Shown here: positions 6,893 to 22,307 of the stretch, one piece after another | How the letters are laid out: each line of letters begins with the position of its first letter | Position numbering within the stretch: position 1 is the stretch's first letter | IMG/VR virus record: IMGVR_UViG_3300038829_000114 | DNA: 22,392 bases | Strand: one strand, 5' to 3' | From: a virus | Taxonomy: Duplodnaviria; Heunggongvirae; Uroviricota; Caudoviricetes | The notes under the pieces: model-generated | The model's input: the letters and a program-made list of their open reading frames with translations, nothing else | Databases searched by the model: none | What the model was told of the DNA's origin: nothing | Made by a program: the position numbers and the translations under genes

Positions 6893-6968
6893 TGTTAGGC
6901 TCCTTTACGTTATGGTCTTAGTTTATCTTAATAGAGACGATAATGCAAGTGGTTATGGTATGGTGTCT

Positions 6969-7298
6969 CTATCCGAGGGTGTTAGCATTGCGTTTGTTTT
7001 CAATGCTCATAAGTAAGGCACCATTTTCGTTATGGCCCGAACCGCAATTGTATTGGTGGGAGTGGCAAATAACGTCCCAGGCTTTGCGCTGGCCGATGAC
7101 GTTCAAAGTATCCCAAATCGCGGGGTCGAATTTGAATACCAGGCCCATGACTACCTTTGGCTCACTGGTATCGACATTCTGACCAGGATCAGCCATAACC
7201 ATAGGCGCTAAGGGGCTTTGGTACTGGGTTTGGAAATTGTGATAGCCCAAGAGCGTACCAGTGTACATATAATTTTGGCCGAGGCAGATAACTTTCAT
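6969..7298 (-). CDS. Hypothetical protein, 109 aa
   Basis: ORF track; AAAGGG RBS; stop TAG is the start of a TAGAGAC arm. Confidence 0.8.
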   Translation of the reverse strand: MKVICLGQNYMYTGTLLGYHNFQTQYQSPLAPMVMADPGQNVDTSEPKVVMGLVFKFDPAIWDTLNVIGQRKAWDVICHSHQYNCGSGHNENGALLMSIENKRNANTLG

Positions 7299-7323
7299 GA
7301 CGTTTCCCTTTTCAAGTAAGAAT

Positions 7324-7352
7324 ATTATACCCTAGTTAAATCGCCCTGTCAA
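7324..7352 (-). promoter_or_regulatory. Consensus sigma70 promoter TTGACA-17-TATAAT
   Basis: tgtcaa 7347-7352; attata 7324-7329. Confidence 0.8.
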
Positions 7353-7754
7353 ATTCGAGCCGAACAGGTTTATTAGTTCGTGAGTCATTGCAACGGCTGT
7401 ATGATGGCCGCTTACGGATACCGTTTTGTCGTCATTGTGATACATAGAAGCAATCATGGCATGTCCATGTTGACCGCGAAAGGTTAGCGATATGTGCAGA
7501 TTGTTGCTGTATCGCGTCGGCTTAAACTTGTGAGTATAAACGATGTTGGTTTTTGAATAGTCTTGAATGTCATGGCCTAGAGACAAATCCATGTTAATTG
7601 CTTGTAATACGGCATGGTCGCTGCCCTCTTCGACAGACACAGTAACTTTGCCGTTCTCTAGTGTGTTATCGACTTCGTAATCAATGCCAACGGTTTCGAG
7701 TCTGGTTAAAACCGCTTGCAAATGCTTTGGACTAACGTGGTGGCCAAATTTCAT
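7332..7754 (-). CDS. Hypothetical protein, 140 aa
   Basis: ORF track; ATAACTTAAAGGGG leader/RBS; promoter TTGTCT-17-TAAACT. Confidence 0.8.
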   Translation of the reverse strand: MKFGHHVSPKHLQAVLTRLETVGIDYEVDNTLENGKVTVSVEEGSDHAVLQAINMDLSLGHDIQDYSKTNIVYTHKFKPTRYSNNLHISLTFRGQHGHAMIASMYHNDDKTVSVSGHHTAVAMTHELINLFGSNLTGRFN

Positions 7755-7831
7755 ATCTTAAACCCCTTTAAGTTATGAGTCCAGTTTACCAGTTAAGAGA
7801 CATAGAGACAACTGTGTGTGTTATGGTATCT

Positions 7832-8068
7832 CTATCCGAGGGCTTTACCAGACAGTGCAAAAATGTCTGTGTTATCATTAAACGGTTTCAATGAATACTT
7901 GTCTATGATCTTAAACGTATATTGAGGCTTGCCAGCAAACATAGAGACGATTTTTTGTTCGGCGCGGTGCAGGGTGTTTGCTTCAACGACAAAACCCCGT
8001 TCTGTGGCCATTTTTATTCCGTCCCCGTCTATGATAGCGTAGTGGACTTTAATCGTGTGTAAACCCAT
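7832..8068 (-). CDS. Hypothetical protein, 78 aa
   Basis: ORF track; 2-nt gap to upstream gene; stop within CCCTCGGA-TAGAGAT. Confidence 0.75.
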   Translation of the reverse strand: MGLHTIKVHYAIIDGDGIKMATERGFVVEANTLHRAEQKIVSMFAGKPQYTFKIIDKYSLKPFNDNTDIFALSGKALG

Positions 8069-8070
8069 TT

Positions 8071-8307
8071 TTAGCCCTTTGTGTAGTAGATGTAGTCAAG
8101 GCCAAGGTTATCGACAGCAAACCCCATATCAACAAGCCGTGAGCCTGTTTCTGTGTTGGGGCTTTTGTTGACTTTGAAAGCAACTGAGGCCATTTTGCCA
8201 TACATTCCCCGGCCTGAGTAGTCTCTGTATTCGCTGTAAATCGTGGAGTGTAATTCGTTTAGAACCTTGATTGCAGCGACTTTCATTTCGGTGTGTAGGT
8301 GGCTCAT
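8071..8307 (-). CDS. Hypothetical protein with YSGRGMYG motif (uncharacterised phage family)
   Basis: ORF track; AAAGGGG RBS; promoter TTGATT-17-TATAAT. Confidence 0.85.
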   Translation of the reverse strand: MSHLHTEMKVAAIKVLNELHSTIYSEYRDYSGRGMYGKMASVAFKVNKSPNTETGSRLVDMGFAVDNLGLDYIYYTKG

Positions 8308-8380
8308 GTGTTCCCCTTTACGTTATAGAGACATTATAGCTTAGTTAATAGAGACAATCAAGTGTGAGTTTAGAGTGTCT

Positions 8381-8524
8381 CTATTCGAGGTAGCGTTTCA
8401 TAGAGAATCGGCTAGGTTGCCACCAGTAACGCCAATAGCCACCCTTAAGATGAACCCAGCGGAATACCCATTGACCGATTTGCAATTCCCAGGCTGTTGG
8501 CCCTTTGCCGAATAAAAGAACCAT
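8381..8524 (-). CDS. Small Trp-rich protein, 47 aa
   Basis: In-frame ATG 8524 of track ORF 8381-8668, 1 nt after the upstream stop; stop TAG is in a TAGAGAC arm. Confidence 0.65.
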   Translation of the reverse strand: MVLLFGKGPTAWELQIGQWVFRWVHLKGGYWRYWWQPSRFSMKRYLE

Positions 8525-8525
8525 G

Positions 8526-8813
8526 TTAAAAATTCGGGTCTTGGTAGTAGTTTGCTTCACCGATATAGACAAAGCAGGAATCGGTGCGAAAGGCTTTGTG
8601 CTTTGCCGACAATCGGGCTGTAATGATCGGGCCGCTGGGGTCTTGCGCGAATGTATAAACCGCGTCACCAGATCGAAAATTGCCAGAAACGTGAACAGGC
8701 TTTAATTCGCGCAAGGTAAGGGTTTTTTTGCTGGCAGTCATTCCGATAACCTCATAGGGATAACGGTCTGAGCCGACTTGCTTGGTTGCGCGTGTTCCGA
8801 TTTGAATGTCCAT
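8526..8813 (-). CDS. Hypothetical protein with GSDRYPYEV motif (uncharacterised phage family)
   Basis: ORF track 8526-8843; ATG 8813 after GAGG; the upstream ATG lies inside the predicted -10. Confidence 0.85.
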   Translation of the reverse strand: MDIQIGTRATKQVGSDRYPYEVIGMTASKKTLTLRELKPVHVSGNFRSGDAVYTFAQDPSGPIITARLSAKHKAFRTDSCFVYIGEANYYQDPNF

Positions 8814-8898
8814 GATAACGCCTCGCTTTGTTATGACTGTCATAATAACTTAAGTTATAGAGACAATCAAATTTGGGTTTATGGTGTCTCTATAAGAG

Positions 8899-9186: not shown

Positions 9187-9294
9187 GGCCTTCCCCTTTG
9201 CGTTATGTTGGAATCAGTATAACTTAAGTTAAGAGGCTTGTCAAATGGGCTTGAGGGGTGGCGGTTTGACAATAAGTAATCACTATGCTACAAT

Positions 9295-9376
9295 ATCTTA
9301 TACCGTTGAGATAGTACGGGACGGGCGGGAAGGTCTAATCATATCAGGGCGTTATAGGACAGACTTCCACATGTAC
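9295..9376 (+). ncRNA. 82-bp inter-promoter element, copy 1 (candidate small RNA)
   Basis: ATCTTATACCGTTGAGATAG..GGACG..GGAAGGTCT-N24-AGACTTCCACATG between TTGACA-17-TACAAT (+) and TGTTATAAT (-). Confidence 0.6.
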
Positions 9377-9435
9377 ATTATAACATGAAAAAAATAGAGA
9401 CGCCACCACTGTTGGTATTGTCTCTATAAGAGGGG

Positions 9436-9576
9436 TTAGCGTTTGTTGTACGAAAATGACAACCAAACATGTCGGCGTTCGGTCTTGCACAGGCTTTGAT
9501 AGAGCTTGTGAGCTTTTTCAAAATGGGTATCTTCGTATTCCCCGACGACTTCGTTTTCAATCATTACATAAACCAT
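9436..9576 (-). CDS. Small protein, 46 aa (MVYVMIENEVVGEYEDTHFEKAHKLYQSLCKTERRHVWLSFSYNKR); not in ORF track
   Basis: Hand translation; AAGGAGG RBS; own module promoter at 9599-9628. Confidence 0.8.
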   Translation of the reverse strand: MVYVMIENEVVGEYEDTHFEKAHKLYQSLCKTERRHVWLSFSYNKR

Positions 9577-9656
9577 TGTTTCCTCCTTTAGTGTTAATAG
9601 TATAGCAGAACAGAGACACCCCCCGCAAGAGTGTTTTGGTGTTGTCTCTATAAGAG

Positions 9657-9887
9657 CTATTTAGGTGCTACAAATTCGATTGGCTCAGGATTCGATAGCG
9701 TAGCAGTCACTTTAACGATACGCCATGCACGTTCGGCGGCAATACGTTCAAATACTTGCCCGTTTGTCTGGTACCCTATGCGGGCCATACCGCCGCACAT
9801 TTTATTGACACATTCGATAGGCCGTTCGCTTAGCGTAAACATTTGGATACCTTCGGACGTTTCAACCGCGTATAAAATTGTTTTCAT
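9657..9887 (-). CDS. Hypothetical protein, 76 aa
   Basis: ORF track; AAAGGGG RBS; promoter TTGTGG-17-TAAACT. Confidence 0.8.
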   Translation of the reverse strand: MKTILYAVETSEGIQMFTLSERPIECVNKMCGGMARIGYQTNGQVFERIAAERAWRIVKVTATLSNPEPIEFVAPK

Positions 9888-9975
9888 AAGTCACCCCTTT
9901 AAGTTATGACGTTAGTTTAACAGAACAGAGACACCCCCACAAACTCAGTCATGGGAGTGTCTCTATTCGAGGGGT

Positions 9976-10440
9976 TTAAGCGGCTTGTGCGGCGGTCAGT
10001 GTTTCGGAGCCTGTAGCTTGTTCGATTGCCAATTCTTCGACAATGAGGCCGGTTGTAAGCACCTTGCCGGAACGCTTGGCTTTTGGCAGGTTTTGAAACA
10101 TGGCCGCTACTTGTTCCTCATACTTGTCCAGGTCGGCAAAATCCTTGAGCATCGTTTCACCTTGTTCGCCAAGAATGACAGCCAAGGCCATGGCGCGTTC
10201 GAGTAGCTTCAAGGCATGCGGAGCCGTGATACCAGAATAGCGGACAAACAACGCCAAAGCCGTTTTGATTGGCACATGGGCAGTCGGCGTATATTGTTCA
10301 TCGGCCTTGACTTCAAAATGGCCGGAAACGCGGACGGCAAGGTCTACCGTATGCTTGCCAACGGATTGCTGCTTACGCAATTCCTTTTGACGCGCATCTT
10401 TAACAATCTTGCTGAGCGCGAACTCTTGTACTGTGTTCAT
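9976..10440 (-). CDS. Hypothetical protein, 154 aa
   Basis: ORF track; AAGGGG RBS; promoter TTGACA(10514-10519)-17-TAGAAT(10491-10496). Confidence 0.85.
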   Translation of the reverse strand: MNTVQEFALSKIVKDARQKELRKQQSVGKHTVDLAVRVSGHFEVKADEQYTPTAHVPIKTALALFVRYSGITAPHALKLLERAMALAVILGEQGETMLKDFADLDKYEEQVAAMFQNLPKAKRSGKVLTTGLIVEELAIEQATGSETLTAAQAA

Positions 10441-10618
10441 TGTTTTACCCCTTTGGCCGTTTTTGGCCGGTTCGTTATCGTATGGAATCCATTCTATCGG
10501 ATTTGCAGGGATTTGTCAAACGAAACAAACATACCCCTTTAGGGGTATGTTAATAACTCGCATAGAGACACCATAAACTATTGTTGCAATGTCTCTAATT
10601 TGCTGGTAAACTGGTTTT

Positions 10619-10858
10619 ATGATTTTACGAAACCAACTTTGCCCGGATTGCGATTCAATGCTAAAAGTAGCAAACCATAACGCGGGACAAGTGTACGCGC
10701 ATTGTTCAAACAATTGCGGGTATTCTACTAAGCCGCGCAATACTCTTATTGACTTGAATGTACATGTTAATGACATTCGCGCCAAGCGTATCGGGCGGGC
10801 CGCTATGAAACTTGGTATTAAAACCGTGGCCGAACTCGAAACCTTGCTGAAAAAGTAG
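10619..10858 (+). CDS. Small zinc-ribbon protein (CPDC...CSNNC), probably leaderless
   Basis: ORF track; ATG is 6 nt after TTGCAA-17-TAAACT and has no RBS. Confidence 0.75.
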   Translation: MILRNQLCPDCDSMLKVANHNAGQVYAHCSNNCGYSTKPRNTLIDLNVHVNDIRAKRIGRAAMKLGIKTVAELETLLKK

Positions 10859-10889: not shown

Positions 10890-10970
10890 ATCTTATACGG
10901 TTGAGATAGAGCCGGACGAAAGAGGGGTCTGGTCTGATAGGGCATAGGATGGCTAGACTCCCACATGTAT
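10890..10970 (+). ncRNA. 81-bp inter-promoter element, copy 2
   Basis: Same scaffold as copy 1; flanked by TTGACA-17-TATAAT (10861-10889, +) and TTGACA-17-TAAAAT (10999-10971, -). Confidence 0.6.
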
Positions 10971-11098
10971 ATTTTACCATGTGATATGTTAGTTGTCAAA
11001 CTGGGATGATAATAGCTCTTATAGAGACTATGCTTGTTTGTGTTGCAGTGTCTCTATAACTATGTTAAACTGGTTTCATAACTTGAAGGGGAAAAACG

Positions 11099-11386
11099 AT
11101 GCAAACTTATCAAGCAAAATGGTATTCTGATCCTGGCCATGAGTGGTTACAGGTCGAAAAAAAGGATTGCGTAGCCCTTGGCATTACTGGCAAGGTAAGC
11201 GAGTGCAGCTATCACAAAGGCCAGCATGCCTACTTAGAGGGCGATTGTGATGCGCCTCTGTTTTATAATGCTGTGGAGGCTTTGGGCGGGGTTATCGACA
11301 TGGGCGTAGAAGTAAGCGCAAACGATGACAGTCCTGTGCGCGAAATGTCCCGGATTACCAGCCGCATGAACTGGAGCCAATCATGA
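11099..11386 (+). CDS. Hypothetical protein with SDPGH.WL...SY...YLEGDCDA motif (widespread uncharacterised phage/plasmid family)
   Basis: ORF track; AAGGGG RBS; promoter TTGCAG-17-TAAACT. Confidence 0.9.
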   Translation: MQTYQAKWYSDPGHEWLQVEKKDCVALGITGKVSECSYHKGQHAYLEGDCDAPLFYNAVEALGGVIDMGVEVSANDDSPVREMSRITSRMNWSQS

Positions 11387-11649
11387 TGAAACATGTACCA
11401 GACTCCATGACGTTCGTAACAGATGATTTTAAGGTTGTCAAGCGGGATGTTGCTAACATTGTTATTCACCCTGTCGGCCATAGCTGTCCCGCGATTCGCA
11501 AAGATTGGATGGCTGTCGAAATTACCAGCGTGACCGGCGAGAAATGGTATCGTGGGACGCAGAAGGCGTTTATTGATAGCCATTTGAAAGTCGCTATGGA
11601 AGTCCACCCTAACGATGAAATTTTAGCCAAGTGGCCGGATGCTAACTAG
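11383..11649 (+). CDS. Hypothetical protein, 88 aa
   Basis: ORF track; ATGA overlap. Confidence 0.75.
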   Translation: MMKHVPDSMTFVTDDFKVVKRDVANIVIHPVGHSCPAIRKDWMAVEITSVTGEKWYRGTQKAFIDSHLKVAMEVHPNDEILAKWPDAN

Positions 11650-11729
11650 ATCGAATAGAGACACCGACTAACTAGCGTTTGTGAGGGTAGTCTCTAACTG
11701 GTAAACTGATTGCAACATAAGGGGTTCAC

Positions 11730-12020
11730 ATGAAACGTATTGACATTCATGGTCGTCGCTGGTGGAACAAACGAACGGGAAGCACTTACCATAGCGTCAG
11801 TGTCGAAGTAGACGGCGTTGAAGTATTCAAAATTCCCTTTGCTTATGGGTACGATCAGCAATACTTGACCAATGCAATGAACGAACTCCAGCGCCGGGGG
11901 CTTGTGAGCCGTATACAGTATCAAGGGGGTTCATGGGAAGCGCCATGGGTTTATGCCAAGCGCGTCGGTGTCGAACTCAATTATGGCGCTATGGACGTAA
12001 ACCGTAAAAAAGACCTCTAA
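11730..12020 (+). CDS. Hypothetical protein (RRW...G.TYHS...PFAYGY.QQY motif)
   Basis: ORF track; AAGGGG RBS; stop TAA directly followed by TAGAGAC. Confidence 0.85.
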   Translation: MKRIDIHGRRWWNKRTGSTYHSVSVEVDGVEVFKIPFAYGYDQQYLTNAMNELQRRGLVSRIQYQGGSWEAPWVYAKRVGVELNYGAMDVNRKKDL

Positions 12021-12093
12021 TAGAGACACCGACTAAGGCTATTTGCTTAGAGTCTCTATAACTGATAAACTATTCTTACTTAAAGGGGTTCAC

Positions 12094-12288
12094 ATGAAAT
12101 CATACATTGTTGGCTTAGAGAACAACGAAAAATCGCAGGATGTTATCGAAGCTGATAACATGATGGACGCGGCGGATATGTGGCTAGAATCGCATCCTGA
12201 CGCCTCTGGCCGGGTTATCGTTGAGAATGAGACTGGCGACAAAGCAGGCTATAATGTTAGCACCGTGGCAACTGCTGAGTTAGTATGA
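12094..12288 (+). CDS. Small acidic protein, 64 aa
   Basis: In-frame ATG of track ORF 12043-12288, after AAAGGGG. Confidence 0.75.
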   Translation: MKSYIVGLENNEKSQDVIEADNMMDAADMWLESHPDASGRVIVENETGDKAGYNVSTVATAELV

Positions 12289-12503
12289 ACATCGAACAGG
12301 CCAGAAAACTAAAACGCGGCAATGTTGTTACTCTAGGCCCGTTTGCGGAGGGCCACGGCTTGACAAGACACCAAACAGTTACGGTAGCCAACAACGTCCA
12401 CCAAAGTGGGGCGACATACCAATTACCGAATGGAACGCTTTACATATGGGTTTCAGTTAGGGCCACGCATGAAATCGTCGTGGCCTCTCACCAACTGAGC
12501 TAG
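12285..12503 (+). CDS. Hypothetical protein, 72 aa
   Basis: ORF track; ATGA overlap. Confidence 0.7.
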   Translation: MNIEQARKLKRGNVVTLGPFAEGHGLTRHQTVTVANNVHQSGATYQLPNGTLYIWVSVRATHEIVVASHQLS

Positions 12504-12507
12504 TCTA

Positions 12508-12690
12508 ATGGTCAAAACAAAAGAACAGTGGGCCGCAATCAAAGCAAAATACCGTCCTTTAGTGATGGAAATTTGCCATGATGTTGCTACCCGTATCAAC
12601 AAAGATGCGCCACAAATCGAAGATGACGGGCCTTACAAGTGTCAAATGGCGCTAGAACTCGTTATCGAAGAATTACAAAACCGGGTCTAG
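12508..12690 (+). CDS. Hypothetical protein, 60 aa
   Basis: ORF track; followed by a module. Confidence 0.7.
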   Translation: MVKTKEQWAAIKAKYRPLVMEICHDVATRINKDAPQIEDDGPYKCQMALELVIEELQNRV

Positions 12691-12747
12691 CTCTAATAGA
12701 GACTTCAAAAGCTGTGACTTGCGGAGTCTCTATTAAAATGTTAAACT

Positions 12748-12836
12748 ATACATGCGGAAGTCTGTAGTGGAGTAGTCTCTAAAGGACGGACCACTCCCTT
12801 TGCTTCTCTGTTGCCGTTCGTTCATCGTATAAATAC
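12748..12836 (-). ncRNA. Diverged, inverted fifth copy of the inter-promoter element (89 bp)
   Basis: Minus strand starts GTATTTATACG and ends AGACTTCCGCATGTAT; internal stem GGAGTGGTC/GACTACTCC; flanked by TTGCGG-17-TAAACT (+) and TTGCGA-17-TATACT (-). Confidence 0.4.
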
Positions 12837-12979: not shown

Positions 12980-13900
12980 ATGGCAAAAGAAAAAGGCAAG
13001 TCTGTTTACGAAATCGTTTCGGAACAGATTATCAACATGATTGAAACATCGGGCGAATTACCTTGGCAAAGGCCATGGGTTGCGGGGGAATCGACGCCAA
13101 AAAATTTGAAGTCGAAGAAAGAGTATAACGGCTTTAACGTGTTTTACCTGTCTTGGGTGGCACAAGCTAAAAATTGGGGGCCGTACTGGTTGACTTGGAA
13201 GCAATGCGAGGCTTTTGGCGGCAAGGTAAAGGACGGCGAATCGAAAAACTATACAATCGTGACATTTTGGAAGTTTTTTGACAATCGAACGTCTGAACAA
13301 GTTGAAGCAGGCGCGAACGGCAAAAGCATACCAATGTTGCGCTACTATAGGGTTTACAATGCCGATCAATGCGACGGACTGAAGCTGCCAGCAAAAGCGC
13401 CCATGCCTAACGTGGTATCGCCGGTCGAAGCTGCGGACGCAATCGTCAAGGGCTACATTTTGGGGCCGTCCATTGTCCACGGCAACGGCGGACGCGCAAG
13501 CTATTCGCCATTGCTTGACACTGTGAACATGCCAGCCGTTGAATCGTTTACGTCGGTGTCTGGTTACTACGGTGTTTTGTTTCACGAATTGGTACATTCA
13601 ACAGGCCATGAAAAGCGGTTAAAGCGTGACATTGCTAACACATATGGCACTGAACCGTATGGCCGCGAAGAATTGATCGCTGAACTAGGGGCCGCTATGC
13701 TATGTGCAAAGGCCGGAATTGCCCCAAATATCGACAATTCAGTTGGCTACCTGCAAAGCTGGCTCAAAGCAATCAAAAGCGACCCAAAGGCAATTGTGAC
13801 GGCGACAGGTAAGGCCGACAAAGCTGCCAAGTATATCGCGGGCGAAACAAAGGCCGAAAGCCTAGACAGCGACGAAAGCGAACAGGCCGAAGCTGCCTAA
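12980..13900 (+). CDS. ardC: ArdC-family anti-restriction / ssDNA-binding protein with zincin-like C-terminal domain
   Basis: LPWQRPW, YNGFN, WLTWKQ...GGKVK.GE, LRYYRVYNADQ (ArdC N-domain); YY..LFHELVHSTGH...YGREELIAELGAA (HExxH zincin-like fold). Confidence 0.9.
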   Translation: MAKEKGKSVYEIVSEQIINMIETSGELPWQRPWVAGESTPKNLKSKKEYNGFNVFYLSWVAQAKNWGPYWLTWKQCEAFGGKVKDGESKNYTIVTFWKFFDNRTSEQVEAGANGKSIPMLRYYRVYNADQCDGLKLPAKAPMPNVVSPVEAADAIVKGYILGPSIVHGNGGRASYSPLLDTVNMPAVESFTSVSGYYGVLFHELVHSTGHEKRLKRDIANTYGTEPYGREELIAELGAAMLCAKAGIAPNIDNSVGYLQSWLKAIKSDPKAIVTATGKADKAAKYIAGETKAESLDSDESEQAEAA

Positions 13901-13984
13901 CTCTAATAGAGACACCTTAGTCGGTAACTTGGCTAGGGTGTCTCTAGTTTGGTAGAATAGACTTATAACGTAAAGGGGTTTACG

Positions 13985-14287
13985 ATGAAAGTTATCCAAG
14001 ACATGACAGTGTTAAAAGCAATGCAGCGCCGGGGCTTGATTCGATTCCACGAGGATACGGGCAAGCTGGTTGGCCAATTGTTTAGCAATCGTAAGGCAAA
14101 AGCCTATTACATTGACGGCGGACCTCGGACGGTGTTTGACTATGATGATTCCCGCTACCAGATCAAATATTTTGATGGTTGCTTTTGTCCTTTTGTTGTC
14201 GAAATCGGGCCGCGTTTGATGACTGAAGAGGAAAAAATTGTTTGGGGAATACCTTTGGAAAGGGTGTGTTATGTCAATGTCAACTAA
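13985..14287 (+). CDS. Hypothetical protein (KYFDGCFCPFV motif)
   Basis: ORF track; ATAACGTAAAGGGG leader. Confidence 0.85.
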   Translation: MKVIQDMTVLKAMQRRGLIRFHEDTGKLVGQLFSNRKAKAYYIDGGPRTVFDYDDSRYQIKYFDGCFCPFVVEIGPRLMTEEEKIVWGIPLERVCYVNVN

Positions 14288-14603
14288 ATTTGAAGTAGAC
14301 ATGACGGTTGCTGTGTTTGACCGATCTGGAATACGGGCAAGGCGCGTCATTGTCTCTATCAGCCCGAAACGTGGTGATATTAAACTGAACGATGAATCAA
14401 AATATGATTCGCGGGGTTATTCTGGCTCAACATGGGAGCATTGGCACATTGAGCCTTGGACAGATACCCATGCGGTTGAACTAAAACGCCGTATCAATTT
14501 GCAAACGCTCAAGGGTATCCACTGGGAAACGCTGAGCGCCGATAAGATTCAAGCGGTTTTGGATGTGTTGAAAGCTGAGCCAGAACCTAAACCCATCGAA
14601 TAG
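14271..14603 (+). CDS. Hypothetical protein, ~110 aa
   Basis: In-frame ATG of track ORF 14238-14603 after GGAAAGGG; stop TAG is in a TAGAGAC arm. Confidence 0.75.
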   Translation: MSMSTKFEVDMTVAVFDRSGIRARRVIVSISPKRGDIKLNDESKYDSRGYSGSTWEHWHIEPWTDTHAVELKRRINLQTLKGIHWETLSADKIQAVLDVLKAEPEPKPIE

Positions 14604-14675
14604 AGACACTGTAGTAAGACACTGGCTAACATAGTCTCTATCTGATAAACTGTATTCAAGTAAAGGGGAATTGAT

Positions 14676-14969
14676 ATGGAAACATGCTATGATCGAAATT
14701 ATAAATGCTGTGAACAACTAACACCGCTAGAACATTTTCAGAAACACGGTTATTACTCTAGCAACGAAATAGGACCAAACATGTCAAAACCAAAATGTCA
14801 ACTGCTCGGCCAAGACTCCAACGTGTTTAACTTGGTTGGGATTGCTTCTCAAACCCTGAAACGTGCGGGACAGCCGGATAACGCTAAGGCAATGACTGAC
14901 CGCGTATTTGCTTCAGGTAGCTTTGATGAAGCATTAGGCATCATCATGGAATATGTGGACGTAGAATGA
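14676..14969 (+). CDS. Hypothetical protein; C-terminal KPKCQLLGQDSNVFNL...SGSFDEAL.II.EYV domain (widespread uncharacterised family); second start possible at 14781
   Basis: ORF track; AAAGGGG before 14676 and AGGA before 14781. Confidence 0.85.
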   Translation: METCYDRNYKCCEQLTPLEHFQKHGYYSSNEIGPNMSKPKCQLLGQDSNVFNLVGIASQTLKRAGQPDNAKAMTDRVFASGSFDEALGIIMEYVDVE

Positions 14970-15199
14970 AAACTTACGAACTACCTTATGGCCTTGTGAT
15001 CGAAACCCAAAACAACGGTGTCGGGACCGTCAAAGAATCTTGTAAGCAAGGCGGCGAAAACCCTGAGCTTAACGCGGCTTTAGACGGTGTTGAGGCAATT
15101 ATGTTAGCTTTGGCTTGTGCTGGGGTTGATATTGATAACGAGCCTGTTCATAATGCCTTTGTGACTGCTGTAGATGCCATTGAAAACAACTTAGGTTAA
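14966..15199 (+). CDS. Hypothetical protein, 77 aa
   Basis: ORF track; ATGA overlap. Confidence 0.8.
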   Translation: MKTYELPYGLVIETQNNGVGTVKESCKQGGENPELNAALDGVEAIMLALACAGVDIDNEPVHNAFVTAVDAIENNLG

Positions 15200-15287: not shown

Positions 15288-15332
15288 TAGAGACATTACC
15301 TTCCCCCTTTTTGGTAGTGTCTCTATTTTTTT
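15288..15332 (+). terminator. Module hairpin with T7 tract (intrinsic-terminator-like)
   Basis: 13-bp stem TAGAGACATTACC/GGTAGTGTCTCTA followed by TTTTTTT; equivalent on minus strand at 9388-9426. Confidence 0.6.
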
Positions 15333-15340
15333 GTTATAAT

Positions 15341-15422
15341 GTATTCATACGGTTGAGATAGAACCGGACGGAAAGGGGAGTCTGTTCTTATGCTATGAAT
15401 AGAGACTCTACTACCCCATTAT
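15341..15422 (+). ncRNA. 82-bp inter-promoter element, copy 3
   Basis: GTATTCATACGGTTGAGATAGAACCGGACG..GGGGAGTCT-N19-AGACTC; flanked by TGTTATAAT (+) and TTGACA-17-TATTAT (15451-15423, -). Confidence 0.55.
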
Positions 15423-15554
15423 ATAATACCATTTAGGTTCATGCTTGTCAAACGTGGAGTCAATCTATATCGGATAGAGATACTAACCCTAGTTATATAG
15501 CGGGGGTGTAGTCTCTATGATAGAATGGATTCATAACTTGAAAAGGGGAATCAC

Positions 15555-15932
15555 ATGTTCAAAGTATCAGTAAAGTCAAAGCGTCAAAGCCGTTTGTTGC
15601 CTGGGGGTGTCCCTCGCTGGATTCGTTGCTATGATAACGGGGGGACAGATGCAGGCGGCTCAATTGACCGTTACACCGTGATTTATACGGGCCGATGGAA
15701 AGGCCGGGAACGTGGCACTGATTACTATGTGGCTATGAATGCTGCACCGTTTCACCCGCAAGGTTTTGGGCAACACGGTGAAATAAGTTTTAGCCAGTTG
15801 GGGGACGGTCAGACTGCAATGGACCGGCCTAAGTATTCACACCTTGGTAAGAAAATTACATTTAAGTATTTGCCTACCGATTGTCAAAAGCTGGTTCTAA
15901 GCGATTACAAGGATATTTGGGGCCTCGAATAG
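15555..15932 (+). CDS. Hypothetical protein (YDNGG...DRYTV motif family)
   Basis: ORF track; AAGGGG RBS; stop TAG is in a TAGAGAT arm. Confidence 0.85.
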   Translation: MFKVSVKSKRQSRLLPGGVPRWIRCYDNGGTDAGGSIDRYTVIYTGRWKGRERGTDYYVAMNAAPFHPQGFGQHGEISFSQLGDGQTAMDRPKYSHLGKKITFKYLPTDCQKLVLSDYKDIWGLE

Positions 15933-16003
15933 AGATACCTTAGATATTGTGTTGAGTTGTAGTCTCTATTTTGGTAAACTGATTTTAAGTAAAGGGGAAT
16001 CAC

Positions 16004-16216
16004 ATGAGCGCACAAAAAATGTTTGGTTGCAGTACGGAAATGCTGGACCTTACAATATCGAACAATTTCCGGTCGCATGACGTTAAAATGCTTTTGACAG
16101 GCATTTTGAGCGAATCGCAAGAGGCTATGGCGCGGGGCAATCTGGAAACAGCGCGGCAACAGATCAACCAAGTCAAGTACCTTATCGACAAACTTGAAGT
16201 CAAGCGGGGGAACTAA
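16004..16216 (+). CDS. Hypothetical helical protein, 70 aa
   Basis: ORF track; AAAGGGG RBS; promoter TTGAGT-17-TAAACT. Confidence 0.8.
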   Translation: MSAQKMFGCSTEMLDLTISNNFRSHDVKMLLTGILSESQEAMARGNLETARQQINQVKYLIDKLEVKRGN

Positions 16217-16218
16217 TC

Positions 16219-16794
16219 ATGAGTGTTGGAAGTGCAATGCTTGAAGCTGAAAACCCCTACAAAAACCAAGTTATTCAGGCAACATGGGGCCACCTTGCGC
16301 CGACAAAGCATGTAACCTATCGTGGGTTTTTTACATTCGGCGTAGGTTGTTTTGAAAGCGGTTCCGTTCGCGTGTTGGCGTTTGAGTTTGGCGATTTGGA
16401 TAGCTCACCCTGGATGTACCAAAAGCTCCATGATTTTATCTTTCGCCACAAAGAAAGTTTTGGGGAACGTGGCTGCGTTTATCAATTCGTCGGGACTATC
16501 CGCAATTATTCGTTTTGTGGTAAGATCACAAAGGTTTTTGATGCAAACGTACCTGTCCAGCCGGTGCCTAAACCAAAGCCAAAAAAGCCGGTTGCTATCC
16601 CGCCACCGTCTGACAATATCGAATGGATTAAGGCCGTGGAAGCTGTCAAAGCGGGCGCTGGGTATATTCTCGAAACAACTACGATGTTTCACTATGTAAA
16701 CCCCAAAGGTAAACACGCGGTTTGTTACTGGGGTAGCTTAGACGCAAAAGAAGCTCAAACGACGTTGCGGACGTTAGCAACACAGGCTAACTAA
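16219..16794 (+). CDS. Two-domain hypothetical protein (TWGHLAP...DSSPWMY domain, Pro/Lys linker, C-terminal domain)
   Basis: ORF track; PVQPVPKPKPKKP linker; stop followed by TAGAGAC. Confidence 0.85.
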   Translation: MSVGSAMLEAENPYKNQVIQATWGHLAPTKHVTYRGFFTFGVGCFESGSVRVLAFEFGDLDSSPWMYQKLHDFIFRHKESFGERGCVYQFVGTIRNYSFCGKITKVFDANVPVQPVPKPKPKKPVAIPPPSDNIEWIKAVEAVKAGAGYILETTTMFHYVNPKGKHAVCYWGSLDAKEAQTTLRTLATQAN

Positions 16795-16873
16795 TAGAGA
16801 CACCATAGCTAAGACACTGGCTATTAGTTGGCGTCTAGGGTATAATAAACTCATAACGTAAAAGGGAATTAAC

Positions 16874-17221
16874 ATGAATGTTTTCGACAAACTTAATGCA
16901 GATGTTTACAAAAACACAGACCCGTATCCTGTCAAGCGAGAGGTAAAGCCAAAAGAGTTGCCGGGGTACAAGATTGACAAAGAAACACACCCCGATTTTA
17001 TGGCGGCAAAGGAAGAGTATCGGGAAGCTCAAAAAGTATGGCAGCGGCGCGAATATGAATTACAAGATCAGTTTAAGCGTGATTTGCTTGAGCATCTTGG
17101 TATTACAGGCCACCCCAAAGCCGATTTGCTTTATTCCTATGCATGGTCTCGTGGTCACTCCAGCGGCCTGCATGAAGTGGCTAACTGTGCGCTTGATCTT
17201 GTCGAACTGATTAAGGACTAA
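16874..17221 (+). CDS. Hypothetical protein (AW.RGHSSG..EV motif family)
   Basis: ORF track; AAAGGG RBS; promoter TGGCTA-17-TATAAT. Confidence 0.9.
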   Translation: MNVFDKLNADVYKNTDPYPVKREVKPKELPGYKIDKETHPDFMAAKEEYREAQKVWQRREYELQDQFKRDLLEHLGITGHPKADLLYSYAWSRGHSSGLHEVANCALDLVELIKD

Positions 17222-17400: not shown

Positions 17401-17485
17401 ACCCATCACATAGAGACACTATACATTAGTCAGTGGCTAAGGTGTCTCTATTCTGATAAACTGTTTTGAACGTAAAGGGGAATTT

Positions 17486-17716
17486 ATGAGCCATCCAGAC
17501 GACGAGCATTATGTTTACGGAACGGCTACAATCAAACGAAACTGGTTGATCCCTAACTCGTGGCACGTAGGCGGGCAAAAGGATAATCCATACCCGTACA
17601 TTTGTGAAACACTATCCGATGCGTCACGGATGGCACAAACCGTAGATCATTACAACAAGACAAACGAAATTAAAAAATTTGGTACCGACCTTAGCATTTT
17701 AACTCGAACGGTTTAA
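17486..17716 (+). CDS. Hypothetical protein, 76 aa
   Basis: ORF track; AAAGGGG RBS; promoter TGGCTA-17-TAAACT. Confidence 0.8.
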   Translation: MSHPDDEHYVYGTATIKRNWLIPNSWHVGGQKDNPYPYICETLSDASRMAQTVDHYNKTNEIKKFGTDLSILTRTV

Positions 17717-17800
17717 CAACTCTTTTAGAGACACTACCACATTAGACATTGACTGATGTGTCTAAGTAGGATAAACTGATTTTAAGTAAAGGGAAACAAA

Positions 17801-18004
17801 ATGCGAAAATCATACCGTGGTGAATACTGGGTTATTGTCAGTCACGATTCAGTAGGTGAAAAAATCTATTGGAGTAATCGTTGGGGCTGGACTGGTCTTG
17901 GTGAAGCCGATTGCTATAAAACGTACCAAAAACGTCTCTATGCGTTGCCTATGAATAGCGCACCCGTTAAGTGGGAAAACTTGCGGAGACAAAAGACATC
18001 TTGA
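17801..18004 (+). CDS. Hypothetical protein (YWSNRWGW motif), 67 aa
   Basis: ORF track; AAAGGG RBS; promoter TTGACT-17-TAAACT. Confidence 0.8.
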   Translation: MRKSYRGEYWVIVSHDSVGEKIYWSNRWGWTGLGEADCYKTYQKRLYALPMNSAPVKWENLRRQKTS

Positions 18005-18393: not shown

Positions 18394-18471
18394 TAGAGAC
18401 ACCATAAACTAGCAATTGATTTAGTAGTCTCTATGGTGTAGAATAGATTCATAACGTGAAAGGAACACAAA

Positions 18472-18693
18472 ATGATTTTTCGTGATTATCTTGAAAAACT
18501 AAATGCCTTTGCGGAAAGTAACCCAAAGGTTCTCGATTTGCCTATTGTTGCTGAATTCCATTCGGATGAGGGTAATGCAGCTTATAAAGAGTTACAACAT
18601 GAACCCGTTGTTGCCGGATGGGATGGCCTAGACTGCTATACAATGCATGGCCAGGATGCTGATGCCCGCATGTGCGTTTTTATCAACCACTAA
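18472..18693 (+). CDS. Hypothetical protein, 73 aa
   Basis: ORF track; AAAGGA RBS; promoter TTGATT-17-TAGAAT. Confidence 0.8.
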   Translation: MIFRDYLEKLNAFAESNPKVLDLPIVAEFHSDEGNAAYKELQHEPVVAGWDGLDCYTMHGQDADARMCVFINH

Positions 18694-18703
18694 GGAACAA
18701 CAA

Positions 18704-18946
18704 ATGCTCAACGATTTTAACGACCCGTCAAGCGACTCTTGGATTTTCCGTAATTTCGGTAGAATCTCTACAGTCATGATTGTTATAGGTCTTTTAGCTG
18801 CTGTTATTCAAATTGGAGCAATTGTTTTCATTGCCGCTAAAACGGTTGACGCTGTTTCTGAAGAATGTACTGGTAAAGACGCGGCAAGTTGCGCGGGTGG
18901 GATTGCAGGAAAATTCAAAAAAGCATTTAACGAAGAGGCGAACTAA
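18704..18946 (+). CDS. Single-pass membrane protein, ~80 aa
   Basis: In-frame ATG of track ORF 18647-18946 after AAGGA; hydrophobic VMIVIGLLAAVIQIGAIVFIA. Confidence 0.8.
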   Translation: MLNDFNDPSSDSWIFRNFGRISTVMIVIGLLAAVIQIGAIVFIAAKTVDAVSEECTGKDAASCAGGIAGKFKKAFNEEAN

Positions 18947-18947
18947 C

Positions 18948-19121
18948 ATGGCTAAAACTTACAAAGATTTGCTCAAGTGGCTGGTTGCTATGCCGGATGC
19001 CCGACTTGAGGACACGGCTACAATCCAATTTGATGACGAATACTTTGCTGTAGACGATTTTGGAGTCTGTGATGACGGGGTGCTTGATGATGGCCATTTG
19101 TTTATGGTTGTCGGTGAATAG
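18948..19121 (+). CDS. Small acidic protein, 57 aa (MAKTYKDLL...DEYF...VLDDGH)
   Basis: In-frame ATG of track ORF 18813-19121 after GAGG. Confidence 0.8.
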   Translation: MAKTYKDLLKWLVAMPDARLEDTATIQFDDEYFAVDDFGVCDDGVLDDGHLFMVVGE

Positions 19122-19203
19122 CATCTAATAGAGACACCTTTAATCTCAGTTTGTGGAGTCTCTATAAATTTGTTAAACTGGTTTCAACGTAAAGGGGAAT
19201 TAC

Positions 19204-19395
19204 ATGAACAAATTAGCAGTTACACAGTTGCTCGAAGGTGTTGCCAACGAATTGCTTGGTATTGATGCCGACGATTTGACCACGGCTGAAAAAAACATTG
19301 TGCGGCGTCTCTATAACTTTCGGAAAGAAGAAAAGCTACCCGAACGTGAAGAACTTACGCGCCTTTATAACGAAGTCTCCAAGGGGCCACGATAA
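19204..19395 (+). CDS. Hypothetical protein, 63 aa
   Basis: ORF track; AAAGGGG RBS; promoter TTGTGG-17-TAAACT. Confidence 0.8.
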   Translation: MNKLAVTQLLEGVANELLGIDADDLTTAEKNIVRRLYNFRKEEKLPEREELTRLYNEVSKGPR

Positions 19396-19694
19396 TGCGC
19401 GGGCAAAAGTTTTTCAAAATATTTTTCGAGGAAAAGCAACTACCGGACGAACACTGGGAACTGGTTGCTGAAGATGGTACGCCTAACTATATCGGTACGG
19501 ATGTGGTTATCGAACACCTTACGATGGACGGGGCTGCTAATTACTTTGGTCCAGATGTTTACCGTAAGATTGAGGACACCATTCGGATGATTGACTTTAA
19601 GAATGGCAACGTAAACCATTATTTACACTTTTTGGCGTGTGGCTTGGCCGGGGCTAACCCTGAGCTACCTGAAAATAAATATCGCAAGGAATAG
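19395..19694 (+). CDS. Hypothetical protein (FFEEK...IDFKNGNV.HYL.FLA motif family)
   Basis: ORF track; TAATG overlap. Confidence 0.85.
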   Translation: MRGQKFFKIFFEEKQLPDEHWELVAEDGTPNYIGTDVVIEHLTMDGAANYFGPDVYRKIEDTIRMIDFKNGNVNHYLHFLACGLAGANPELPENKYRKE

Positions 19695-19806
19695 GCTTAT
19701 AAGCGTTCACAGCGGTATACCTCGGATAGAGATACCTTAACCCGTTACTTGTTTTCGTCCCTAAAAATAGGTATAATTAGGGACAAGATGAAAGGAGCAA
19801 AAAAAC

Positions 19807-20156: not shown

Positions 20157-20165
20157 AGGCACATC

Positions 20166-20336
20166 ATGAGTAGCTTAAAAGATCGCTGCAAGCACTGTAA
20201 AAGAGAACGTGGAAAGCATAAGGCTACCACGCATCATTGCCCTGTAGGAATGAAAACACGTATTGGATACCTTCAATTTCATCCTACACAGGTGTTTGAG
20301 TTAGGCAAAGAGTACAAAAACACTATTACTCTCTGA
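20166..20336 (+). CDS. Small Cys/His protein, 56 aa (CKHC...H...HCP); not in ORF track
   Basis: Hand translation MSSLKDRCKHCKRERGKHKATTHHCPVGMKTRIGYLQFHPTQVFELGKEYKNTITL; GAAGG RBS. Confidence 0.75.
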   Translation: MSSLKDRCKHCKRERGKHKATTHHCPVGMKTRIGYLQFHPTQVFELGKEYKNTITL

Positions 20337-20366
20337 TTTGACAATAGAGATAACCCCTGGTATAAT

Positions 20367-20448
20367 ATCTTATACGGTTGAGAAACTACCGGACGAGAGG
20401 GAAGGTCTGTTATTGGCTATAGTGGCGCGATTAGACTCCCACATGATC
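20367..20448 (+). ncRNA. 82-bp inter-promoter element, copy 4
   Basis: ATCTTATACGGTTGAGAAA..CCGGACG..GGGAAGGTCT-N24-AGACTCCCACATG; flanked by TTGACA-17-TATAAT (20338-20366, +) and TGATATACT (-). Confidence 0.6.
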
Positions 20449-20723
20449 AGTATATCACGTATCGCGCCATTTATCGCGCCACTTTGTCGTGATACCTCTA
20501 AAAGAGATAGTAAACCCAGGTGAGTCCATCAACCTTCCGCTTACTCACTAAGCACGAGCATGCTTTGTTGAAAGGTCGGGCTGGATTTACAAAACCATTA
20601 TGCCATAGAGACAACATTATTGCAAATAGGTTATAAAGTGTCTCTATCAGATATACTAAGGGAATTGGGTTGTGGTGTCTCTATGATGGTGTTATTATGA
20701 AGCGTAACGTAAAGGGGAATAAA

Positions 20724-20852
20724 ATGAAACCGACAGTAAAAGCGCGGAATTGGGGGAATGTAACCCTACAGTTTAAGTCTGGACGTGGTGTACACAAGGA
20801 CAAGTCTATGTACACGCGGAAAGTTAAACATAAGGGCAAAATTGACAAGTAG
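20724..20852 (+). CDS. Small basic protein, 42 aa (…HKDKSMYTRKVKHK…)
   Basis: In-frame ATG of track ORF 20670-20852 after TAACGTAAAGGGG. Confidence 0.8.
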   Translation: MKPTVKARNWGNVTLQFKSGRGVHKDKSMYTRKVKHKGKIDK

Positions 20853-20904
20853 TGTTGGTTCTGGTAAACTTATTACAACTGAAAACTTTTGAAATGGAGC
20901 TAAC

Positions 20905-21540
20905 ATGAAATTCAATATCAACAGCGGAAAAATTGTGGTGTCCGACCCGTGCTATGAAAATGGTGTAGAGTGTCGCCATCTTATCGAAAATGCTTTGGTT
21001 GGCGTGTGGGTTGCTGAAGTACGTCTCTCTGATGAAGGTTCATGGGGCCAACGTGTTTCCGAACTGGTTATCCGCCATGAAAGCTGTAAACTGACTGTTG
21101 AACCGTACAGTCTCGAATCGTCCGACATTGGTGTTGACTCTGGACAAGCTGGTTTCTTTGATGCCGATGCCTACCGTAAGGATGAACTCATTATCAAAAC
21201 GCCTGAATTTGATTTAGGCGATCATGGAAAAGGTGATGGGGATAAATGGTATAGTGCTTGCTGTGACCTTACCCTAAGCAATGAACGGGCCGGGGTGGTT
21301 GCTGAAACGGGTGTGGTCTCGTCCAGTGGCTTTGGCGATGGTTGTTATCAGTTGTTTGTTTCGACTAACACTGATGGTAAAGTGATTGCCGCAAAGATCG
21401 TTTTTATCGGGCCGGAAGAAGAAGAAGAAGAGGACGAATGCTGGGGCTGTAACAATCCCGAATCCGAATGTACCTGCTGCCAAGAATGTGGTAAGGGCGA
21501 TTGTGACGGGGAATGTCAAAACGAGCCGGAAGAGGACTAA
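20905..21540 (+). CDS. DUF4241-like protein with acidic, Cys-rich tail
   Basis: SGKIVVSDPCY, IGVDSGQAGFFD and SSGFGDGCY motifs; tail E7D-CWGC...CTCCQECGKGDCDGEC. Confidence 0.8.
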   Translation: MKFNINSGKIVVSDPCYENGVECRHLIENALVGVWVAEVRLSDEGSWGQRVSELVIRHESCKLTVEPYSLESSDIGVDSGQAGFFDADAYRKDELIIKTPEFDLGDHGKGDGDKWYSACCDLTLSNERAGVVAETGVVSSSGFGDGCYQLFVSTNTDGKVIAAKIVFIGPEEEEEEDECWGCNNPESECTCCQECGKGDCDGECQNEPEED

Positions 21541-21622
21541 ATCTTTTAGAGACACTATAGACAGTGACTTGAGGTGTCTCTAGTTGTTTGGTAAAATGGT
21601 TGATAAGTGAAAGGGAAACAAC

Positions 21623-21850
21623 GTGAAAGATTATCTCTATTATGTTATTGTTGCTTGTACAGGGACTCCAAAGCAGGTTTGGGCAGCTAGTCCGTTTCAA
21701 GCCGCGCTAAAAGCTCATTCGGAGTATGTCCACTCAGCATTAGTAAACGGCCATTTTTACGATTATGAATGTGCCATACAGGTTTCCGATGACTACGATG
21801 GTAAAGTAAATCTACAAGCGTTTCAATTCTCTTACCCTAAGAAGGTGTAA
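21623..21850 (+). CDS. Hypothetical protein, 75 aa
   Basis: ORF track; AAAGGGA RBS; promoter TTGAGG-17-TAAAAT. Confidence 0.75.
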   Translation: MKDYLYYVIVACTGTPKQVWAASPFQAALKAHSEYVHSALVNGHFYDYECAIQVSDDYDGKVNLQAFQFSYPKKV

Positions 21851-21851
21851 C

Positions 21852-22271
21852 ATGGACAAATGGCTTAAATTTTGGGAAGTTGTTGACGCAATCGACTGGC
21901 GTAGCCACCAAGACTACAACAAGGGTGGGGCCATTATGTTTAACAACCTAAAGCTATCTAAGGCTGAAGTTAGAACCTTGCGTGGTGTTAAGCAAGCCTA
22001 TTTCAAACCGTTGTGGGATAAGCTGCTGGTTATGTTCAATGCCGATCATGACAAAGACTATCATATGTCTGATGACTCTCTATCTGACCTTTGTGACGAG
22101 ATTATTGGCCGGGGGTGGTCTTACTATAAAACAGTTATGGAATGCCCGGAAATCGCTATTAAAATGGCACGGGCTAACGATTATGAAGAATCGTTTTCAT
22201 ACTGTTTTCAAGGTGCTTATGATGACTCGGATAGAGACACTGACTTAGCTGATTTGAATAGCGCCAACTAG
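21852..22271 (+). CDS. Hypothetical protein, DUF4240-like pattern
   Basis: FWEVVD...SDDSLSDL...IIGRG..YY..V...P resembles the DUF4240 pattern (by eye only). Confidence 0.6.
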   Translation: MDKWLKFWEVVDAIDWRSHQDYNKGGAIMFNNLKLSKAEVRTLRGVKQAYFKPLWDKLLVMFNADHDKDYHMSDDSLSDLCDEIIGRGWSYYKTVMECPEIAIKMARANDYEESFSYCFQGAYDDSDRDTDLADLNSAN

Positions 22272-22307
22272 TCTGGTAAAATAGTCTCTAAGGATAAAGG
22301 AACTTAT

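Follow-up and report, generated by a model that had tools for sequence, protein, structure and literature searches.

What is the function of the inverted pair of heptamers (TAGAGAC and its reverse complement GTCTCTA) that recurs at the gene junctions of the Caudoviricetes record IMGVR_UViG_3300038829_000114? The window analyzed here is the whole 22,392-nt stretch of that record, and with the sequence fetched beyond it (at least 20 kb past the window) the analyzed DNA amounted to 42,153 nt (about 42 kb) of a contig of about 107.5 kb. An earlier note on this DNA had proposed three candidates, namely an operator, an RNA hairpin and an attC-like recombination site. The reading that we favor, at a little under even confidence, is that the heptamer is a duplex-DNA recognition word for a putative regulator, built into expression cassettes that resemble the promoter-early stem-loop (PeSL) cassettes of T4-like phages. 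The evidence is statistical throughout, drawn from the sequence of one phage population and from 1.3 kb of a single relative, and the gene starts and transcription starts are predictions.

Abundance and distribution of the heptamer

TAGAGAC/GTCTCTA was by far the commonest heptamer of the window. When both strands were counted, 73 exact copies were found, compared with 2.16 ± 1.47 in dinucleotide shuffles, in agreement with the earlier hand count of about 70 against about 3 expected. Exact pairs of the form TAGAGAC-N15-35-GTCTCTA occurred 17 times in the window (expected 0.01). With one mismatch allowed, 24 junction units were observed in 6932-22290, and the number rose to 26-27 when units with a degenerate or missing 3' arm were included, which bears out the figure of about 26 pairs at gene junctions given earlier. 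That span is correct for the units. The heptamer itself is not confined to it. About 20 copies lie in 1-6900, and past the window a density of about 3 copies per kb was maintained over 20 kb or more, up to 42 kb at the least. The total over 42,153 nt was 138 copies, evenly spread (about 3 per kb) across two blocks of different composition.

The non-coding share of the window (about 20 %) carries 52 of the 73 copies, and the other 21 lie inside open reading frames (ORFs). When coding sequences were shuffled by synonymous codons, 2.3 ± 1.4 copies were obtained (maximum 7 in 1000 shuffles) compared with the 16 observed, an approximately 7-fold enrichment. Lone copies (n = 73) were divided into 37 sense and 36 antisense, without strand bias, and no overall bias was observed among all copies either (63 versus 75). 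By site count, close pairs were convergent in 65 cases, divergent in 6 and direct in 14. Lone copies also stand in promoter cores in either orientation (TTGACA-TAGAGAC, TATAAT/TACAAT-GTCTCTA and TATAA-TAGAGAC). In the AT-rich left block they are mostly found 1-5 nt before start codons or fused to the -10 box (TATAA-TAGAGAC), and beyond the window there are lone forward copies directly after a -35 box, reverse copies directly after a -10 box and copies overlapping start codons. Both arms share the asymmetric consensus A-TAGAGAC-W-M-Y, and the sole variant enriched everywhere was TAGAGAT (27 copies, including the lone 5' box). An excess that has no strand bias and extends into ORFs and into promoter cores in either orientation fits recognition of duplex DNA, and fits an RNA signal or an orientation-locked stoperator (see below) less well.

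Unit anatomy and promoter geometry

Each unit consists, in order, of a stop codon, CTC[TG]NA, TAGAGAC, a loop, GTCTCTA, a gap, a -10 box, a leader and ATG. This order had been recognized before; the gap, given then as 3-9 nt, is in fact 1-14 nt (mostly 5-9), and a -35 hexamer in the loop of the inverted pair has to be added. The upstream stop codon is either the TAG of the arm itself or lies 0-10 nt ahead of the arm. The 5' TAGAGAC is usually followed by AC[CT], about 15 variable nt and a -35-like TTGnnn. When the 42 kb were scanned for promoters (T[TG]Gnnn-N16-18-TAnnnT), the unit promoters showed a spacer of 17 bp (rarely 16 or 18), usually containing GTCTCTA, and an extended -10 box of the TGnTAAACT, TAGAAT or TATAAT type. 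The -35 hexamer is thus bracketed by the inverted pair, and the 3' arm is located within the core promoter. The leader (about 20 nt) contains ATAAC and ends in AAAGGGG, with the ATG 5-7 nt further on, and the whole forms an expression header of about 85-90 nt present in about 26 copies. The genes served by the units lie on the minus strand up to 9965 and on the plus strand from 10563, as expected from the reported flip of orientation near 10.5 kb. Each gene or group of two to three genes has its own promoter, leader and ribosome-binding site (RBS) behind one unit, so that the description of self-contained cassettes stands.

The distance from the start of the 5' arm to the first base of the -10 box was 44-47 nt in 26 promoters (mean -45.3, standard deviation 0.7), and the 5' arm thus occupies about -57 to -51 relative to the predicted transcription start. 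The start of the 3' arm floats between -10 and -21 (standard deviation 2.8) and takes essentially all positions that are clear of the -35 box and the TGn. In four or five units the 5' arm is in register and an intact 3' arm is missing. The loop sequences have diverged widely at constant spacing. This speaks for selection acting on how far the upstream box stands from RNA polymerase, a property of the DNA.

Two promoter classes were distinguished. None of the 26 arm-bearing promoters has the consensus -35 box TTGACA (mean match 3.5 of 6), and 18 of them carry the TG extension. Among the arm-less intergenic candidates, 9 of 23 have a perfect TTGACA with a 17-bp spacer (Fisher p = 4e-4; an independent promoter scan agrees). 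The consensus class drives a repeated non-coding element and a few protein genes, and in two of its promoters the forward heptamer or the TAGAGAT variant follows immediately after the -35 box. Consensus and box-dependent promoters may mark two temporal classes. If this is true, the promoter split could help to date gene expression in unculturable phages.

The repeated non-coding element is about 80 nt long with the core CGGTTGAGATA..CCGGACG and was found at 9290-9375, 10890-10975, 15340-15425 and 20366-20450, and also at about 37110-37190 beyond the window. Its promoters are perfect TTGACA-N17-TATAAT promoters of the arm-less class, some of them face to face, and the repeat had no Rfam match.

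Further contexts of the heptamer were recorded besides stop codons and promoter cores. At about 41323 and 41472, beyond the window, it overlaps translation starts (AAAGGA-GTCTCT-ATG). At 3829-3850 and 5263-5285, TGTTATAA-TAGAGAC is followed by ATG 1-3 nt later; the predicted transcription start falls on or adjoins the start codon, and the mRNAs may therefore be leaderless. A 13-bp box, TAGACACTGACTA, stands at about 38141, 39822, 40029 and 40263 (38-40 kb, beyond the window) and resembles an arm shortened by the loss of GA and joined to a -35-like TGACTA. Within the window, GACACTGGCTA occurs in the unit loops at 14618 and 16813. All heptamer copies contain GTCTC, which we take to be the site of BsmAI-type type IIS enzymes; with at least 138 such copies, the host would lack a restriction system of this kind or the phage DNA would be protected.

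A relative in public assemblies

Megablast against GenBank phages gave no match. When two DNA patterns and two proteins were searched in IMG/VR, only chance matches were obtained, none of them heptamer-rich, and a 22-base composite pattern found 10 unrelated loci in the JGI metagenomes. The only relative found was a Logan contig of 1343 bp (run SRR21686415) with an ArdC protein 72 % identical to that of the window. In this contig the unit that follows the ArdC gene is retained; the arms are identical and the -10 box is the same, whereas the loop has changed and the leader is similar. The promoter of its ArdC gene has the reverse heptamer in the spacer, where the window has a degenerate copy. 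The next gene is a homologue of 14271-14603 (53 % identity over 40 aa, E = 4e-11), and the window gene 13985-14287 is therefore absent there. The indel starts between the leader/RBS and the start codon, a second flanking unit is absent, and no breakpoint lies in the arms. The comparison of gene order between related genomes, which had been put forward as a way to decide on recombination, could thus be made with one relative.

A putative regulator

Among the three candidates the operator fits best, as judged by the register of the 5' arm, the two promoter classes, the unbiased lone sites and the excess in ORFs; from these we infer protein binding. One sequence-specific protein, encoded by the phage or by the host, would bind the heptamer and would control the whole arm-bearing promoter class at once by acting at transcription initiation. 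Bound at the upstream box (-57 to -51) it could activate, and bound at the spacer copies or at copies around -10/+1 it could occlude. The weak -35 boxes would make the unit promoters dependent on, or controllable by, this factor, and lone copies elsewhere would serve as extra docking or blocking sites. The inverted layout would also give upstream (read-through) transcripts a hairpin, which probably insulates some of the cassettes, and the shared header probably makes accessory genes easier to gain and to lose, as in PeSLs. That the relative, with an ArdC 72 % identical, keeps the heptamer, the unit and the spacer copy supports recognition by a regulator.

Several points weigh against such a regulator. 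No helix-turn-helix or other DNA-binding Pfam family was found among 62 ORFs, except weak zinc-ribbon matches, and no repressor-like family was found among the same ORFs. A core of 7 bp is short for a specific protein site, and an arm spacing of 18 to 29 nt is ill-suited to a rigid dimer. The fixed register may come partly from common descent of the units, as several loops share ACCATAAAC. About 6-9 of the 26 units have long G-U stems that work on the sense strand only, which points to an RNA role too. All of the statistics come, moreover, from one phage and 1.3 kb of one relative.

Hints of nucleic-acid binders among the array products were limited to three, the very basic Cys/His-rich mini-proteins 6573-6737 (minus strand, 54 aa) and 20166-20336 (plus strand, 56 aa) and the zinc-ribbon protein 10619-10858. 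None of the three matched a curated family above threshold. In the case of the candidate regulator 9976-10440 (154 aa, behind a TTGACA promoter), the predicted fold is of low confidence (predicted local distance difference test, pLDDT, 41).

Alternative explanations

The inverted pair could act as an RNA hairpin when the upstream gene is transcribed in the sense direction. It might attenuate or terminate transcription, stabilize the 3' end, or be processed or bound by a sequence-specific RNA factor, and its overlap with the next promoter would then reflect compaction only. We regard this as unlikely. In its favor, the 5' arm abuts or supplies the upstream stop codon, and PeSL stem-loops were shown to terminate transcription (PMC2839356). 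Loop interiors folded somewhat better than shuffled interiors (mean z -1.45; 9 of 26 below -1.64), and in 16 of 26 units the sense strand was the more stable of the two strands, a weak preference (mean -1.4 kcal/mol, p = 0.067). The units at 13907, 9926, 15288 and 17411 have long stems with many G-U pairs, and a T-run follows two or three units. The single-arm variants TAGAGAT and GTCTCTG keep G-U pairing on the sense strand, but this wobble argument is weak because TAGAGAT is common everywhere. When intrinsic terminators were scanned for, 11 terminator-like sites were found where 16.2 were expected by shuffling and only one of the 11 lay in a unit; the unit family does not have the GC-rich stem, short loop and U-tract of such terminators. 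Many units are bare 7-8-bp stems with 18-26-nt loops. No covariation was observed past the heptamer, as pairing at stem positions 8-10 amounted to 45 compared with 47.0 when the 3' partners were shuffled among units (p = 0.82), and contiguous extension of the stem beyond the heptamer was not significant (p = 0.16). An RNA hairpin would also leave unexplained the register of the 5' arm, the units without a 3' arm, the 73 unbiased lone sites and the excess in ORFs. From the folding results, an RNA role is plausible for a subset of units and does not explain the family, and to this extent the hairpin candidate of the earlier note survives.

Two further explanations appear improbable to us, the first being that the units are mainly linkers for gene shuffling, either by PeSL-like homologous exchange or by site-specific, attC-like capture at the heptamers. 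It would account for array genes that are mutually unrelated (one weak paralogue pair only) behind the same header, and PeSL-mediated indels and mini-circles have been documented (PMC2839356, PMC4122927). The relative lacks a gene right behind a conserved unit, and the position of its indel resembles that of the PeSL crossovers, which were mapped between the -10 box and the Shine-Dalgarno sequence (SD) (PMC2839356). Three array genes have homologues in unrelated phages without the heptamer; this also means that the header is a property of this lineage and is not carried along with the genes. The single indel, however, breaks outside the arms and does not lie between two units, the ORFs of the 42 kb gave no match to an integrase, recombinase or transposase family, and as single-stranded DNA 11 of 13 units folded weakly (-1.9 to -5.8 kcal/mol). 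A promoter is present in every cassette, and if the lone copies were crossover sites, those within ORFs would pose a hazard. The attC-like candidate is thus poorly supported. A special form of it, in which the heptamer pairs are crossover sites and the -35 box travels with the upstream cassette and the -10 box and leader with the downstream one, is very improbable in our judgment; joining any two cassettes at the arms would then restore a functional promoter, and the recombinase would lie beyond the 42 kb. The other explanation treats the heptamer as a genome-wide DNA word outside transcription (docking for DNA organization or packaging, a mark of self DNA, nicking or priming sites), to which the promoter copies would be secondary. 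It agrees with the even density in two blocks of differing composition, the enrichment inside ORFs, the lack of overall strand bias and the copies abutting start codons. The register to the -10 box, held to about one nt in 26 promoters, and the two promoter classes nevertheless tie the heptamer to RNA polymerase, and 52 of 73 sites are intergenic in a window of which only about 20 % is non-coding.

Other candidates were rejected. Contamination with the Nextera/Tn5 mosaic end was dismissed as the mosaic end differs by one base and the heptamer forms part of assembled promoters covered about 7x, and was seen again in an independent study. A miniature inverted-repeat transposable element (MITE) was rejected because the loops are not conserved. 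Cruciform extrusion would need longer arms and shorter loops, and N4-type hairpin promoters would need far smaller loops. Two apparent joints and most loose ends in Logan contigs had 20-nt sides and came from other unit copies in the genome, so that they are not recombinants; such contigs cannot show rare circles.

Other features of the region

The window is phage-like, with about 56 ORFs that are mostly small and rarely have family matches. Matches were obtained for an HNH-AP2 endonuclease (1586-2530, minus strand), an ArdC-type anti-restriction protein (12980-13900), and DUF4241 and DUF4240 proteins. The region is filled with small genes for which no relatives are known, and no T4 core genes were found in the 42 kb. 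Rfam and tRNA scans of the window gave nothing relevant. Identical DNA is present in assemblies from three runs of one groundwater study; the runs containing the phage sequence are all from that study, with no RNA runs among those listed. One assembly variant with seemingly different gene content proved to be 100 % identical and to differ only in gene calling.

Block 1-6500 is AT-rich (37 % GC versus 44 %), with densely packed minus-strand genes and solo heptamers 1-5 nt ahead of start codons. In the same samples its contig depth is about 1-5 versus about 7, and it assembles only as contigs of less than 2 kb. This part of the window may be variable or specific to a subpopulation. The HNH-AP2 gene, which is homing-endonuclease-like, has an internal convergent heptamer pair at 1744/1808, and its end runs through the copy at 1592. 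A small ORF of about 39 codons (20724-20843) without a fetched gene call has a good AAAGGGG RBS and lies between the unit at 20606 and a TTGACA promoter at 20842. The units and six lone copies of the left block are listed in Table 1.

Table 1 Heptamer units and selected lone heptamers in the window
Feature	Coordinates	Strand	Details
Unit, 5' arm only (TAGAGAT 6566-6572)	6521-6572	-	-35 TTGAAC, 17-nt spacer, TATAAT; 3' arm absent
Inverted pair around -35 TTGCAT	6932-6971	-	-10 TAAACT 6 nt past 3' arm; serves 6734-6892; TAG of arm is stop of 6969-7298
Unit, TAGAGAT 5' arm	7803-7834	-	-35 TTGTCT, TGGTAAACT; serves 7332-7754
Unit and extra reverse copy	8326-8383	-	Pair 8349-8383, -35 TTGATT, TATAAT; reverse copy 8326-8332 right after -10; serves 8071-8307
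Inverted pair	8858-8892	-	-35 TTGATT, weak -10 TATTAT; serves 8526-8813
Inverted pair, then T-run and TGTTATAAT	9395-9426	-	
Unit, 3' arm variant GTCTCTG	9611-9650	-	-35 TTGCGG, TATACT; serves 9436-9576
Unit, 3' arm variant GTCTCTG	9926-9965	-	Long stem, RNA -25.5 kcal/mol; serves 9657-9887
First rightward unit	10563-10597	+	-35 TTGCAA, TGGTAAACT; serves 10619-10858
Unit	11022-11056	+	Serves 11099-11649
Unit	11656-11696	+	Serves 11730-12020
Unit	12021-12058	+	Stop TAA of upstream gene abuts arm; serves 12094-12690
Unit with TGTTAAACT	12697-12732	+	Lone reverse copy next, 12775-12781
Unit after ArdC gene	13907-13946	+	18-bp stem; conserved in relative; serves 13985-14603
Unit	14601-14640	+	TAG is stop of 14271-14603; serves 14676-15199
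Unit heading repeated non-coding element	15288-15325	+	13-bp stem, then T-run and TGTTATAAT
Unit, TAGAGAT 5' arm, TGATAGAAT	15475-15517	+	Serves 15555-15932
Unit, TAGAGAT 5' arm	15930-15968	+	TAG is stop of 15555-15932; serves 16004-16794
5' arm in register, degenerate 3' arm	16795-16846	+	-35 TGGCTA, TATAAT; serves 16874-17221
Unit	17411-17450	+	Serves 17486-17716
5' arm in register, 3' arm reduced to GTGTCTA	17726-17777	+	-35 TTGACT, TAAACT; serves 17801-18004
Unit	18394-18433	+	Serves 18472-19121
Unit	19129-19164	+	Serves 19204-19694
TAGAGAT 5' arm in register	19727-19777	+	-35 TTGTTT, TATAAT; degenerate arm GTCCCTA in spacer
Inverted pair, weak promoter	20606-20646	+	Extra reverse copy 20677-20683
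Unit	21547-21582	+	Serves 21623-22271
Wide pair	22232-22290	+	5' arm in register with TTGAAT/TAAAAT; 3' arm just past -10; start inside ORF 21852-22271
Lone heptamer, AT-rich left block	1274-1280	-	Between stop codon and next start codon
Lone heptamer	3519-3525	-	4 nt ahead of ATG of 3167-3514
Lone heptamer fused to TATAAT (TATAA-TAGAGAC)	3829-3835	-	3 nt ahead of an ATG
Lone heptamer fused to TATAAT	5263-5269	-	1 nt ahead of an ATG
Lone heptamer	5748-5754	-	5 nt ahead of ATG of 5419-5742
Lone heptamer fused to TATAAT	6027-6033	-	Upstream of 5762-5989

Comparison with known systems

The earlier note had recognized the motif from no described system. For the heptamer itself this still holds, as the literature search returned only primers. 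The layout, on the other hand, has analogues. One likeness is to the PeSL and PmSL (promoter-early and promoter-middle stem-loop) cassettes of T4-like phages (Arbiol et al. 2010, PMC2839356; Comeau et al. 2014, PMC4122927). In both cases a repeated intergenic module comprising a stem-loop, a sigma70-type promoter, an SD and a start codon fronts small accessory ORFs as a self-contained unit, the stem motif is at least partly conserved, and gene gain or loss is seen next to the modules (here as the single indel of the relative). Here each repeat has a sigma70-type promoter (T[TG]Gnnn, a 16-18-nt spacer and TAnnnT in the 26 units), and the SD (AAAGGGG) and start codon stand at the 3' end of the module. 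The authors of those studies speculated that the partly conserved stem motif is a protein target (PMC2839356, PMC4122927). The placement differs because the stem-loop here encloses the -35 box with the 3' arm in the spacer, whereas the PeSL stem-loop lies upstream of an AT-rich UP region. In addition, the heptamer that forms the arms here is invariant and is found on its own at about 70 further sites, ORFs included, the -35 boxes are weak where those of PeSLs are near-consensus, and no T4-like marker genes were seen in the 42 kb.

Stoperators of Cluster A mycobacteriophages are 13-14-bp sites of the L5 gp71 repressor, present about 25-35 times per genome in one direction relative to transcription. 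They share with the heptamer a short asymmetric site repeated dozens of times at junctions and promoters, thought or known to serve one DNA-binding protein that silences many genes; there are 138 copies here, with the consensus A-TAGAGAC-W-M-Y. The single direction is not followed by the heptamer, whose lone sites are evenly split between sense and antisense. Its core is only 7 nt (about 11 with flanks), its copies number at least 138 and include convergent pairs phased to promoters, and neither a repressor nor an integrase was seen among the ORFs scanned here.

In integron attC sites, 7-nt core sites are inverted around a variable centre behind each gene of the array, and the cassettes are promoterless and expressed from a common promoter. 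The inverted 7-nt cores with a variable centre after each gene are alike, and three of the four attC features compared are lacking. No IntI-type tyrosine recombinase was found among the ORFs of the 42 kb, the units are mostly unpaired along their length as DNA (the 11 of 13 weak folds given above), and the cassettes carry their own promoters, with lone cores being frequent.

In Cluster K mycobacteriophages, the start-associated sequence (SAS) is a conserved sequence at the translation start of some non-structural genes, with its function given as unknown (Pope et al. 2011, PMC3203893). The extended form (ESAS) is described there as an imperfect inverted repeat upstream of the SAS, with 17-bp arms, a variable spacer of 4-13 bp and a better conserved left repeat (PMC3203893). 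The layout here is similar, with a conserved leader, an inverted pair with a variable spacer and a better kept left arm; arm lengths and spacers differ, and the sequences are unrelated. Neither a promoter within the repeat nor a genome-wide excess of the repeat is described in the part of PMC3203893 consulted.

No promoter class with one box at about -57 to -51 and another copy within the spacer was found described in the literature searched. If a protein does recognize the heptamer, a single factor could turn several dozen accessory genes of this large uncultivated phage on or off together, and the heptamer would provide a handle toward a new phage transcription factor and a compact promoter/insulator part. 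The comparison with PeSLs, ESAS and stoperators suggests that the heptamer cassette layout is a new twist on the known promoter/stem-loop cassettes of phages, extending the PeSL, stoperator and SAS repeat systems by fusing hairpin, promoter and recognition word in one element.

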